Shown here: one piece after another, positions 14,485 to 21,584 of the stretch
Position numbering within the stretch: position 1 is the stretch's first letter
Layout: every line of letters starts with the position of its first letter
Assembly: GCA_008632985.1 (NCBI GenBank)
Contig: QPGO01000032.1
Span: forward strand, 493,330 to 557,329
DNA length: 64,000 bases
Source: Psammoneis japonica
Taxonomy: Eukaryota
Direction: 5' to 3'
Position numbers and translations under genes: made by a program
Notes under the pieces: generated by a model
What the model saw: only the letters and a program-made list of their open reading frames with translations
The model's database searches: none
What the model was told of the DNA's origin: nothing

Positions 14485-14760
14485 TGACAGGATTTGAACA
14501 GGATTTGGGTGCGCGCGAAATGTCGCGCACTGTTCAGTTTGCCGCGCACAGTTTTGTGTGCTTTAGTTCCGCGCGTTCGCGCGCGACGTAGTTTGCTTTC
14601 GAGCCACAAGGCTCACAAGAATGACAACAGCAGCCCGATTGTGCTGACTTGCACGTCTTTCGGCTCCTGTGACGGTCTCTGAGCGGAGACTCATCTGCCA
14701 TTTAGACAGCAGCAAGGAGTCATTGTTTGAATTCTTGCCATTTGCCTTCAATTTCTGTCA
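14485..14760 (+). repeat. 5' LTR
   Basis: TGACAGG...CTGTCA. 22 differences from the 3' LTR by manual alignment. Confidence 0.95.
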
Positions 14761-15662
14761 GATTAACAGTCTTGCTCATTGTCGACCCATTGAGCAACCG
14801 CCATCATCGTCGTTGATTTACCGATGACGCCATTTCAATTCTGTGTGGACCTCCGCACACATTCTACACACATCGGCAAGTCTGCGTGCATTCAATGCCA
14901 GGGCATCGGCAGGAAGTTAACGTCACCATCAAGTCTCCTTGCCGCTGGATGTCTGGATTGATTGTGCCACCTTTGATCGCTGAAGACATGCACAACGGTC
15001 ACATCCAAGTCTGTCCTTGATCCTCATCCCTTGACACACCCATTCATTGGTTAAAGGTCAAGAACCCTGCACATTCAAGGATCTTCGTCGCTGAAGACAT
15101 TTGTGTGTGCACATCTTCACGGCCAAGAACTTGCACCCGCTCTTCGGACTGCGGTTTTGCCGCCACTCTACAGGCACACCGAGTCCATTGCCTGATCTGC
15201 CCCGGACTGCTGGTGCTCCACAGATCTGCTGGGTCCACGAGGACGACTGTGAGAGCAAGCAGCCGTGATTGCAGCCTGCGTTGGGGCGAGGGTGCTTTCC
15301 CGCGTTTGTTCGTTCGTCCACAGCGCCTGATGCCTGCGTCAACTGGCCAGCCTGATCAGGAAATCCAACCGACATAAAATGAGAATGGTCGGGGGTCTTG
15401 TCCACCTCTGGTCAGCTCACCTGCAGGGGTTTGCAACCCGCTGCTCCACTCGCAAGCAACCCAAAGCGCCGCTGGCTGCGGGTTCGGACGTGCCGGCACA
15501 ACTCTACGGACCGGATGGGAAGTTTAGCACTTGACAATGAACGGGGTGGCACAGCCCGGCGACTTCTGATTTTAAGGTGGTTCAAGATTTCAAGTCAAGT
15601 CCATTTCAAGTCAAGTCCATTCTCACCCAAGTTTCAAGTCTGCCTTCACTTCCCAACAAGAA

Positions 15663-18600: not shown

Positions 18601-21308
18601 TTGGTTCGCCCGCCCACACATGGCTGCTGGCGCTCATGCATGTGTGCTTCATGCTCAACCATGCAGCATCCCCACGTCTCCACTGGCGCACGCCCCTCGA
18701 GACTCTCACTGGCTCCACCCCGGACATCAGCCCATTGCTTTGCTTTCACTGGTGGGAACCCGTGTGCTTCCACCTCGATGACTCCGATTGGCCGTCCAAA
18801 TCCCGTGAGTTGCGTGGACGCTTTGTTGGCATTGCTGAGCACGTCGGCCACCAGATGACCTTCAAGATTCTCTCTGACGAGACTCAGAAGATCCTCTGCC
18901 GGTCCAACGTACGCTCCGCTGCCACCGATCCTGCCGTTCGAAACCTGCATCTTGATCCTCCTGATGGGGAGCCACCTGAACCCATCATCAAATCTCGCCA
19001 TGACGACAACCCCGTCGATTCTCCTGATGGGGAGATCAGGACACCCAAGATGCCAGTTTTCGATCCGCAAGACATCATCGGACGCACCTTCCTCATGCAG
19101 CCACAAGAGGACGGACAACGCCACAGAGCTCGCATCGTCAAGGCCGTCGAAGACCACAAATGGAAAGTGAACGGCAATCCCGAGCTCACTAAGTTCGTCT
19201 GCTCTGTCAACAACGATGAATGCGAGGAAGTCCTTGCCTGCAACGACATCATGAATCACATTGAGCAAGAAGACGAAGACACCACTGTTTGGAAATTTCG
19301 ACGCATCGTGTCACACGAAGGACCTCTGAAGCCTCATGACCCAACCTGGAAAGGCTCAAGCTACAACATCATGCTTGAATGGGAAAGTGGGGAGATCACG
19401 TCCGAGCCTCTTGCCATCATCGCCAAGGATGACCCCGTCACCTGCGCCATCTATGCACGAGAGAACGGACTTCTCGACACTGATGGCTGGAAGCAGTTCC
19501 GCACCATTGCGAGGCACCAAAAGAAGCCATTTCGCATGGCCAACCAAGCCAAGCTTCGCTCCTTCCGCACTGCACCTCGCTGCAAGTGCGGATGCGAAGT
19601 TCCCGGAACTGCAAACACACCATGTCACTGGACGAACGCAATGGCAACCGCAAATGGGGAGACGCAACTAACCTCGAGATGGACCAACTCGAGGAGTGCG
19701 AAGTCTTCCATGACTGCGGGCCCTTCAAGTCTTCCACTCCTCCTGCGGGACACAAGAAGATCCGAGTGCACCCAGTGCACGACGTGAAACACGACGGTCG
19801 CCACAAGGCACGACTCGCAGCCGATGGGCACCTCACGGACGCACCCATTGACAGTGTCCACTCCGGAGCAGTCTCCCTCCGTGGCCTTCGGCTGATGATT
19901 TTCCTGGCCGAACTCAACGAGTTGGAGACATGGGCCACCGACATTGGCAATGCCTGCCTTGAAGCCACCACCAAGGAGAAGCTCTACATTGCAGCCGGAC
20001 CCGAATTTGGCAAACTCGAAGGACACATCCTTGTCATCCACAAGGCCCTGCATGGACTGCGCAGCTCTGGTCTCCGCTGGCACGAGCACTTTGCCGACTG
20101 CCTGCGAGCTGAAGGATTCTTCCCCTGCCGCGCCGAACCCGACATTTGGGTGCGCAGGAATGGCGACCACTGTGAACACATTGCCGTTTGTGTGGATGAC
20201 CTCGCCATTGCTGTGAAGGACCCTCAATCTTTCGTCGATGCTCTCACGGAAAAGCACAAGTTCAAGCTCAAGGGTGCGGGACCCATTGAGTTCCATCTGG
20301 GTTGCGACTTTTCCCGGGATCCCGACGGAACCTTGTGCCTGTCTCCGCGCAAGTGCATTGAGCGCATGGTTGACAGCTGCGCCCGACTGTTTGGGGAGAA
20401 ACCTGCCACCAATGCCCTGTCACCTCTGGAGAAGGGTGACCACCCCGAACTGGACACTTCCGAACTGCTGGGGCCCGATGGCATTCACAAGTTCCAGTCT
20501 CTTGTTGGTTCACTCCAGTGGGCAGTGTCCCTTGGTCGAATTGACATCACCACGGCCATCATGTCACTCTCTAGCTTCCGAGCTGCGCCCCGTCAAGGCC
20601 ACTTGGATTGTGCCAAACGCGTCTGTGGGTGCCTCTCCAAGATGCGACATGGCGCTCTCCGCGTTCGCACGGAAGAGCCCGACTGTTCGGATCTCCCTGC
20701 TCCGGCCTGTGAATGGATGCATTCCGTGTGCGGTGAAGCAGAAGAGATGATCCCGAAGGATGCTCCACCGCCCCTTGGCAAGTTTGTCACTGCCACCCAC
20801 TGCGTCGGTGCAAACTTGCACCATTGCATGCTCACCGGACGCTCTGTCATGGGAATGCTCCACTTCCTCAACAAATTCCCGGCTGATTGGTTCTCTGAGA
20901 AGCAAGCCACCATGGAGACTGTGACCTGCGGGTCTGAATTTGTTGCCGCAAGGACTTGTGTTGAGCAGATCATCGACCTGCGCATCACCCTGCGCTGCCT
21001 TGGCATCCCGATCTGCAATGTCAGTTGCATGTTCGGTGACAACAAGTCGGTTGCAGACAGTGCCACCATCCCGCACTCCAAGTTACACAAGCGACACACC
21101 GCACTGTCATTCCACCGTGTGCGTGAGGCAATTGCCTCTGGTTGCCTTGAGTTCCACTTCATCGAAGGCTCCCGCAACCCTGCTGACATTCTCAGCAAGC
21201 ATTGGGGTTGCTCCCAAATCTGGGACCTTCTCCGCCCCCTCATGTTCTGGAACTTCATTCCATCTGAAGTCGAATCTGTTTCTGTGACTCCTCAAGCAAA
21301 CTGGGGAG
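15663..21308 (+). pseudogene. copia gag-pol polyprotein pseudogene
   Basis: Protease LVDRGANG, integrase IATDT..LISDRAQVE..QHQNFAER, RT DIGNACL/KALHGL/CVDD, RNase H FGDNKSV..NPADILSKHW. TGA stops at 16764 and 18555, frameshift near 19600. Confidence 0.95.
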
Positions 21309-21584
21309 TGACAGGATTTGATCAGGATTTGGGTGCGCGCGAAATGTTGCGCGCTGTTTAGTTTGCCGCGCACAATTTTGTGTGCTTTGGTTCCGTGCGT
21401 TCGCGCGCGATGCAGTTTGCTTTCGAGCCACAAGGCTCACAAGAATGACAACAGCAGCCCGACTGTGCCGACTCACACGTCTTTTGGCTCCTGCAACGGT
21501 CTCTGAGCGGAGACTCATCTGCTGTTTAGACAGCAGTGAGGAGTTGTTGTTTGAATTCTTGCCATTTGCCTTCAATTTCTGTCA
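21309..21584 (+). repeat. 3' LTR
   Basis: Direct repeat of 14485-14760 followed by TSD CTTGC. Confidence 0.95.

Follow-up and report, generated by a model that had tools for sequence, protein, structure and literature searches.

Comparative evidence for TpA-directed hypermutation of a Ty1/copia retrotransposon and neighbouring repeats in Psammoneis japonica

Hypermutation directed at the TpA dinucleotide has only recently been described, in the chlorarachniophyte Bigelowiella natans. There, mutation accumulation placed 231 of 302 nuclear single-nucleotide mutations in two integrated viral regions, where the mutation rate was about 1000 times background; 230 of the 231 were A-to-G or T-to-C changes, all on TpA, and reverse-transcriptase and DDE domains were over-represented among coding sequences poor in TpA (Mettrop et al., bioRxiv 10.64898/2026.01.13.699255). 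Here, we report what is, judged by sequence, the same signature in another host and on other targets. The DNA is a 64,000-nucleotide stretch of Psammoneis japonica (GenBank assembly GCA_008632985.1, contig QPGO01000032.1, positions 493,330 to 557,329 of the forward strand), hereafter the window, and our main subject is a 7.1-kb retrotransposon at positions 14485-21584 with its two long terminal repeats (LTRs). Our literature search returned no report of TpA-directed hypermutation in diatoms or LTR retrotransposons, the B. natans preprint being the only match, and the consulted part of a study of diatom copia elements does not mention 'hypermut' or 'deamination' (Maumus et al. 2009; PMC2806351).

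We consider it likely that a copia element inserted here and that the chromosomal DNA then underwent TpA hypermutation, a process confined to repeated or foreign DNA, together with a slower CpG decay. The element, probably intact, would have entered an older repeat, and some 80-90% of its TpA sites would have been converted after integration, TpA becoming TpG if the upper-strand A was hit and CpA if the lower-strand A was hit, while CpG decayed more slowly to TpG or CpA in parallel. Hits on opposite strands at one site in the two LTRs would leave one LTR with TG and its partner with CA. The two LTRs of a single insertion are in this respect a natural experiment on whether the changes arose in the chromosome.

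The element and the differences between its long terminal repeats

We assign the element to the Ty1/copia LTR retrotransposons, on the plus strand, because it combines LTR and target site duplication (TSD) structure with a Pfam RVT_2 match in the frame at 19484-21361. A repeat search found the LTRs as a single pair of direct repeats of 276 nt each, 92% identical and ungapped. They begin with TGACAG and end with CTGTCA, the TG...CA type proper to Ty1/copia, and the 5-bp TSD CTTGC, likewise as in that group, is intact on both flanks. The reverse transcriptase (RT) frame scores 80.7 bits against RVT_2 (cut-off 31.6), as a copia-type RT should, and has 1698 relatives with E <= 1e-10, of which the 120 listed are 52-66% identical and all carry PF07727. 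In the frames upstream of RT, which are heavily mutated, Pfam left integrase, protease and gag unmatched even at E <= 1. The parts of the element are as follows (obs/exp, observed/expected ratio).

14480-14484, plus strand: left TSD copy CTTGC, the identical 5 bases, abutting the 5' LTR
14485-14760, plus strand: 5' LTR, 276 bp, with TG...CA ends (repeat search and our own comparison)
14761-21308, plus strand: internal gag-pol region, TA obs/exp 0.10, CG obs/exp 0.83, GC 57%
15576-19787, plus strand: interrupted reading frame, with two in-frame TGA stops and then a frameshift into the RT frame
19484-21361, plus strand: RT/RNase H open frame, Pfam RVT_2, E 1.7e-22
21299-21308, plus strand: purine-rich run resembling a polypurine tract, directly 5' of the 3' LTR (from sequence reading alone)
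21309-21584, plus strand: 3' LTR, 276 bp (repeat search and our own comparison)
21585-21589, plus strand: right TSD copy CTTGC, abutting the 3' LTR

The two LTRs differ by 21 transitions and one transversion (A/T at LTR position 14), with no indels. Five reciprocal doublets have TG in one LTR and CA in the other (LTR positions 166-167, 186-187, 215-216, 229-230 and 237-238), three sites retain TA in one LTR (51, 81 and 105), six oppose CG to TG or CA (40, 45, 88, 103, 161 and 177), and two are of the AA/AG type (67 and 155). This recount reproduces exactly the tally of the initial annotation, which had given 22 differences with 21 transitions, the same numbers in every class, no indels and an intact TSD. 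At least 21 transitions in 22 differences would have a probability of 1.6e-3 even if two thirds of changes were transitions; 19 differences fall inside the 144 positions belonging to TA, TG, CA or CG doublets and 3 in the remaining 132 (Fisher p = 7e-4); and 22 sites drawn at random from 276 would form five or more adjacent pairs with P = 0.018. The pattern exceeds chance expectation.

What was the ancestral dinucleotide? If 5-methylcytosine deamination alone were at work, all TG/CA doublets would stem from CG and the low TA would be native to the element, and the six sites at which CG faces TG or CA do point to such decay. These six one-sided sites, set beside 17 CG intact in both LTRs, give a loss of about 0.14 per CG per LTR, at which a CG origin predicts 0.22 reciprocal doublets against the 5 seen (P for at least 5, 4e-6; chi2 12.4, p = 4e-4). 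A TA-origin model, with a loss of 0.81 per TA per LTR, predicts 0.5 kept, 4.1 one-sided and 4.5 reciprocal sites where 1, 3 and 5 are found (chi2 0.96), a gain in log-likelihood of 12.1 over the CG-origin model.

The proteins of related elements give the direction independently of the LTRs. For this we took the first 80 of the 120 listed copia relatives (of 1698), aligned them with the RT frame and counted a column as conserved at agreement of at least 80%. Not one of the 17 conserved Tyr (TAY) columns is kept, 13 having become Cys (TGY), 3 His (CAY) and 1 Phe, while 288 of 330 conserved non-Tyr columns are retained; Tyr makes up 0.16% of the RT frame, while the 120 listed relatives average 4.5%. 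The catalytic motif reads CVDD, at the position where we take copia RTs to carry YVDD. Further substitutions obey the same TA rule, namely three Val-to-Ala (GCA), Leu-to-Pro (CCA), Ile-to-Met (ATG) and Lys-to-Glu (GAG preceded by T). Fewer are of the CpG type: Arg-to-Cys, Thr-to-Met, Ala-to-Val, and codons ATN preceded by C, from GTN preceded by C. As read from these alignments, the changes run from A:T to G:C, TA becoming TG or CA. The initial annotation had favoured TA over CG as the source of the reciprocal doublets, and with the CG model rejected, the TA model fitting and the Tyr columns converted, that choice holds. Because Cys and His cannot arise from Tyr codons by CG decay, we regard 5-methylcytosine deamination as the sole cause as exceedingly improbable, and the family copies, repeat pairs and outgroup locus considered below bear on it as well.

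Two of the listed environmental relatives are themselves poor in Tyr. P0222, with 0.9% Tyr, 2.4% Cys and 4.5% His, is the sole one of the 120 listed below 1% Tyr, and P0175, at 2.3%, is also low; both may be hypermutated copies in other samples.

Changes of the right kind could also be made before integration, by an ADAR-like enzyme on RNA or an APOBEC3-style deaminase on cDNA, with the timing of strand transfer accounting for differences between the LTRs. Family copies differ at TA/TG/CA sites, as independent editing in each round would also give, and ADAR usually favours U 5' of the edited A, according to the B. natans preprint (bioRxiv 10.64898/2026.01.13.699255). The LTRs themselves speak against editing at that stage. 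Eight of the nine visible TA-derived sites differ between them, and each LTR holds both TG and CA derived states, so both strands were mutated in both LTRs. Both LTRs are copied from one template, so that RNA edits would be common to the two; the shared edits expected of ADAR- or APOBEC-type editing are not what we find. Moreover, the tandem DNA duplicates of the window's second repeat block carry the same independent changes, non-coding older repeats are depleted even further, and the B. natans process was seen on chromosomal DNA (bioRxiv 10.64898/2026.01.13.699255). We hold pre-integration editing to be very unlikely.

From these comparisons we infer that the changes arose in integrated chromosomal DNA, independently in the two LTRs of a TSD-flanked insertion and in tandem duplicates. 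Independent mutation of each LTR after integration was also the claim of the initial annotation, and the intact TSD, the TG and CA states in both LTRs and a TA loss of 0.81 close to that of the internal part all support it. Since the loss derived from the LTRs is about that of the internal part, most or all of the depletion can postdate insertion. The single feature that would argue against recombination between different elements is the TSD.

Repeat blocks, host genes and other copies of the family

The element is one part of a larger pattern. A composition scan of the window in 500-bp steps gave TA obs/exp of 0.00-0.25 in approximately 7501-26500, 28501-37500 and 41501-47800 against 0.31-0.94 elsewhere, the switch taking place within one 500-bp step. 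The genic parts encode GAPDH, importin-alpha, a kinase, ABHD18, Duc1 and a 2OG oxygenase. The three blocks (no strand assigned) and the dinucleotide values are listed below.

7501-26500: block A, an older repeat hosting the nested copia element, TA obs/exp 0.00-0.12, CG obs/exp 0.04-0.6
28484-38991: block B, a tandem duplication of a ~4.8-kb unit (28484-33262 and 33256-38991, with an extra 951-bp copy)
41501-47803: block C, two copies 89% alike (41801-44295 and 44846-47397), TA obs/exp 0.00-0.08, CG obs/exp 0.07-0.8, 18 reciprocal doublets

TA obs/exp: 0.09 in blocks (34.3 kb), 0.61 in genic DNA (28.5 kb)
TG obs/exp: 1.64 in blocks, 1.17 in genic DNA
CA obs/exp: 1.58 in blocks, 1.18 in genic DNA
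AA obs/exp: 1.22 in blocks, 1.14 in genic DNA
AT obs/exp: 0.87 in blocks, 0.95 in genic DNA
TT obs/exp: 1.24 in blocks, 1.13 in genic DNA

On this composition, the depletion is specific to the TpA dinucleotide, a few AA/AG-type differences such as the 2 of 22 in the LTRs aside, and restricted to the repeat blocks, the host genes being spared. Could it have come about with no dedicated mechanism, through GC-biased gene conversion between repeat copies, or because UpA is selected against in transcripts? The direction of change, from AT to GC, would suit this, and TA is mildly low in genic DNA too (0.61). Yet AA, AT and TT are not depleted in the blocks, TA falls to 0.00-0.05 with borders sharper than 500 bp, conserved catalytic residues have been destroyed, and conversion is not expected to yield reciprocal doublets. 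We find such an origin scarcely credible. Because the changes are confined to repeated or foreign DNA with borders this sharp, the process looks instead like a targeted genome defence.

The spectrum of the LTR pair recurs between the copies of three further repeat pairs of the window.

P1, 28484-32847 against 33256-37628: 99 differences, 94 transitions; 24 one-sided TA, 18 reciprocal TG/CA, 24 CG
P2, 31903-33262 against 37627-38991: 52 differences, 47 transitions; 27 one-sided TA, 7 reciprocal TG/CA, 2 CG
P3, 41801-44295 against 44846-47397: 170 differences, 117 transitions; 2 one-sided TA, 18 reciprocal TG/CA, 21 CG

P2, with 27 TA sites against 2 CG sites, rejects the CG-origin model at p = 3e-20, a further point against 5-methylcytosine deamination as the only process. 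P1 and P2 lie within a tandem DNA duplication, so that RNA or cDNA editing can hardly account for their differences. The last copy in block B (37627-38991; TA obs/exp 0.42-0.60) has 27 TA against 0 in its sister at 31903-33262, and keeps 26 TA that are lost in 36676-37628. The hypermutated domain thus ends inside repeated sequence, and repetition alone seems insufficient to define the target.

The borders of the element separate the two processes in time. On entering the 5' LTR, CG obs/exp climbs from 0.19 to 1.06, and on leaving the 3' LTR it drops from 0.84 to 0.07, the element having 0.73-1.06 against 0.04-0.2 in the older flanking repeat. Because the copia element keeps CG while its older host has lost both TA and CG, TA loss must be much faster than CpG decay. 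The opposite condition is seen at the one distant locus that a metagenome scan with the RT frame recovered, L001 (1-4027; 52% identity), which has a CG obs/exp of 0.01, a TA obs/exp of 0.46-0.49, 33-36 TA per kb and 14 stops; TA density in our RT frame is 2.7 per kb. L001 has decayed by CpG loss only, in contrast to the copia element of the window. The low CG of L001 and of the older flanks is what 5-methylcytosine deamination would produce, but L001, stripped of CG, has kept its TA.

Other copies of the family in the same organism were read from contig pieces of four sequencing runs (X1-X4; one sample, one study). In X1, 14,021 contig pieces lie on the element at a likeness of at least 80% (3190 at 99% or more, 4445 at 95-99%, 4633 at 90-95% and 1753 below 90%), so the family is very abundant. 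Transitions account for 412 of 455 variable places among the copies. Per-site states were obtained for 40 of 467 variable places. At 16 of the 40, other copies have TA (depth share 0.16-0.96) where this element has CA or TG, which a purely CG-based origin would not give; among them are a three-site run at 14856-14860 and the Lys-to-Glu site at 20897. At 9 of the 40, other copies have CG and this element TG or CA, again as 5-methylcytosine deamination would have it. One of these nine, 14645, is the sole LTR site to be polarised: CG makes up 98% of the depth in other copies, and the 5' LTR has TG. Since it polarises as CG-to-TG, CpG decay is a real second process, which contributes the smaller part of the differences.

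Such abundance raises the question of whether the LTR differences arose within one insertion at all, rather than from copies mixed in assembly or polishing or from gene conversion of one LTR. The sites variable among the copies are of the same kinds as the LTR-LTR differences, the 14,021 pieces span 80-100% likeness, and no contig spans an LTR, the best run containing 0.56 of the element's sampled words. Against this, the TSD has stayed intact, contigs with 1-2 other letters run across each junction, the LTR-derived TA loss agrees with that of the internal part, and the three other repeat pairs show the same pattern. We think this explanation unlikely; if true, it would affect the same-insertion argument only, and neither the existence nor the direction of the TpA process.

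Several observations nevertheless count against post-insertion TpA hypermutation as the account of this element. The gap in contig cover just described leaves some room for a chimeric or mis-polished LTR assembly in so high-copy a repeat. The five LTR doublet sites are not among the 40 of 467 places polarised by other copies. At three internal doublets (15832-3, 15979-80 and 16023-4) other copies have T+G in 80-100% of their depth where this element has CA; these do not reveal a TA ancestor and hint at subfamilies, or at source copies that were already partly mutated and passed their changes on. The stops and frameshift of the element indicate decay by other routes as well. P1 fits a single-rate model poorly (chi2 13.0), and rates therefore vary among sites. 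Finally, none of 37 open frames scanned from the genic parts of the 64-kb window encodes a deaminase.

The repeats have some features of their own. In the internal region (14761-21308) TAA and TAG are nearly gone from both strands and TGA is almost the sole remaining stop; each of the two stops within the pol frame is a TGA, and spurious long frames occur on both strands (for instance, 580 aa at 16230-17972, minus strand), a trap for gene prediction. In the older repeat (7501-14484 and 21585-26500), one segment occurs in diverged copies at 8708-9575, 12962-13607 and 22490-23492, which are 69-72% alike; the minus strand of this repeat also has weak Peptidase_M64-like frames at 8754-9509 (E 0.02) and 23265-25289 (E 1.6e-7). 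Block B has long plus-strand frames at 33453-36716 (1087 aa) and 29397-32000 (867 aa); neither matches Pfam at E <= 1, nor does the longer match a PDB sequence at E <= 1. Block C is bounded on its right by a run of 299 N (47804-48102), which leaves the block end undefined.

Target preference and candidate chemistry

How might TpA be recognised? TG and CA outcomes are about equal in number. Of the strand order tests, which follow TG and CA runs along the copies, eight gave p = 0.2-1.0 and one gave p = 0.026 (copy A of P2), and these runs tests revealed no clear clustering indicative of processivity. Near-equal outcomes with no clear runs therefore fit independent hits on either strand of the self-complementary TpA.

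Surviving TA sites in the blocks are not a random sample, TTAA, CTAA and CTAG being enriched 2.3-3.3 fold and ATAT, ATAC and GTAC depleted to 0.08-0.28 fold. These contexts are well fitted by a multiplicative model that ranks the base 3' of the A as T > C > G > A. Polarised events in the four repeat pairs, which are not fully independent of one another, agree: where the 3' base is a pyrimidine, 92 of 271 strand opportunities were hit, and where it is a purine, 58 of 317 (Fisher p = 2e-5); the contest within sites came out at 49:33 (p = 0.10). Consistent with such a preference, former Tyr codons (TAY) became Cys more often than His, by 13 to 3. Taken together, the contexts suggest an extended 5'-TAY-3' target.

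In light of this target, what might the agent be? The process is probably enzyme-driven, with an adenine deaminase acting on DNA as the leading candidate, and was presumably triggered by repeats or by foreignness. We know of no characterised natural enzyme that deaminates adenine or modifies thymine in this way in double-stranded chromosomal DNA. The wobble A34 edited by ADAT/TadA enzymes follows a conserved U33, so that UA is their natural context. An ADAT2-like adenine deaminase is what the authors of the B. natans study propose (bioRxiv 10.64898/2026.01.13.699255). Alternatively, a thymine-modifying enzyme at TpA could have the same sequence outcome and could not be told apart by sequence, because A deamination and T modification are the same TpA site read on opposite strands. 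As a lead only, thymine oxidation might provide such a chemistry. In the consulted parts of the dinoflagellate literature, early reports have 5-hydroxymethyluracil preferring TA and TC contexts in Crypthecodinium (PMC11071213), and the modified base is linked to transposon silencing (PMC11572971).

Consequences and comparison with known systems

If repeats are altered in this way, their apparent age changes with them. The LTRs diverge by 8.0% raw, or 8.65% by the Kimura two-parameter distance; divided by context, this is 3 of 132 positions (2.3%) outside TA/TG/CA/CG doublets and 19 of 144 (13.2%) inside. As the initial annotation anticipated, standard LTR dating overestimates the age of the insertion, 2.3% outside the affected doublets standing against 8.0% overall. 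The age is overstated about 3-4 fold, with a wide uncertainty because the baseline consists of three differences. In genomes with TpA hypermutation, LTR insertion ages would be inflated several-fold. Annotation would suffer too: TA-free repeats lack TAA and TAG stops and therefore present long false open frames on both strands, whose Tyr-less 'proteins' will cause confusion.

More broadly, the findings would fit a TpA-specific 'anti-RIP' defence (RIP, repeat-induced point mutation), acting on DNA and changing A:T to G:C, that operates both in a rhizarian and in a diatom-like stramenopile. Such a defence would be old or recurrent in the SAR group (stramenopiles, alveolates and Rhizaria), would have disabled a very abundant copia family, would itself prefer 5'-TAY-3' targets, and would imply that adenine deamination or thymine modification is carried out by a natural enzyme on double-stranded chromosomal DNA. 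We offer this wider proposal tentatively, at somewhat below an even chance. If true, a natural A-to-G enzyme working on double-stranded DNA at a defined dinucleotide would be relevant to mutation biology and to base editing.

How does the locus compare with known systems? Like APOBEC3 or ADAR editing, it shows clustered, context-specific transitions in retroelement sequence; unlike them, for they edit RNA or cDNA before integration, it has LTRs that differ from each other and affected duplicates that are not retroelements. CpG decay of the kind known from methylated transposons also runs here, second to the TpA process and slower (about 0.14 per CG against 0.81 per TA per LTR), but cannot remove TA or convert Tyr codons to Cys or His. 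Dinoflagellate 5-hydroxymethyluracil shares a tie between thymine modification and transposon silencing, with no mutational outcome reported in the consulted parts of those papers (PMC11572971, PMC11071213).

Fungal RIP is the closer parallel in logic and the opposite in chemistry. Both processes act in situ, depend on context, make transitions only, are restricted to repeats with sharp borders, inactivate transposons and inflate LTR divergence; dependence on repeats is, for this locus, something that we infer only. RIP makes TpA from CpA and TpG and lowers GC, whereas here TpA is destroyed and GC raised. The TpA excess and CpA/TpG loss that mark RIP are accordingly reversed in the blocks, with TA at 0.09, CA at 1.58 and TG at 1.64.

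The B. natans process differs in host, target, degree and kind of evidence. Host genes in the window are closest to diatoms among named matches: GAPDH is about 70% identical to pennate diatoms, its best named matches among the 120 listed, and importin-alpha is 38-42% identical to any match, with the diatom Ditylum the best named among the 120 listed (40%); no Bigelowiella name occurs among the 120 matches listed for either protein. The target in B. natans, as far as the consulted part of the preprint goes, is giant-virus and virophage inserts, and here a high-copy copia family and other repeats; TA obs/exp is 0.45 in the B. natans region of nucleocytoplasmic large DNA virus origin and 0.09 here, where the signature is at saturation in LTR retrotransposons and other repeats alike. 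The evidence there is a measured mutation rate, and here comparative, drawn from the LTR pair, the duplicates and the outgroups. In both organisms, TpA goes to TpG or CpA, in what would here also be chromosomal DNA, and the change is confined to foreign or transposon-like sequence.

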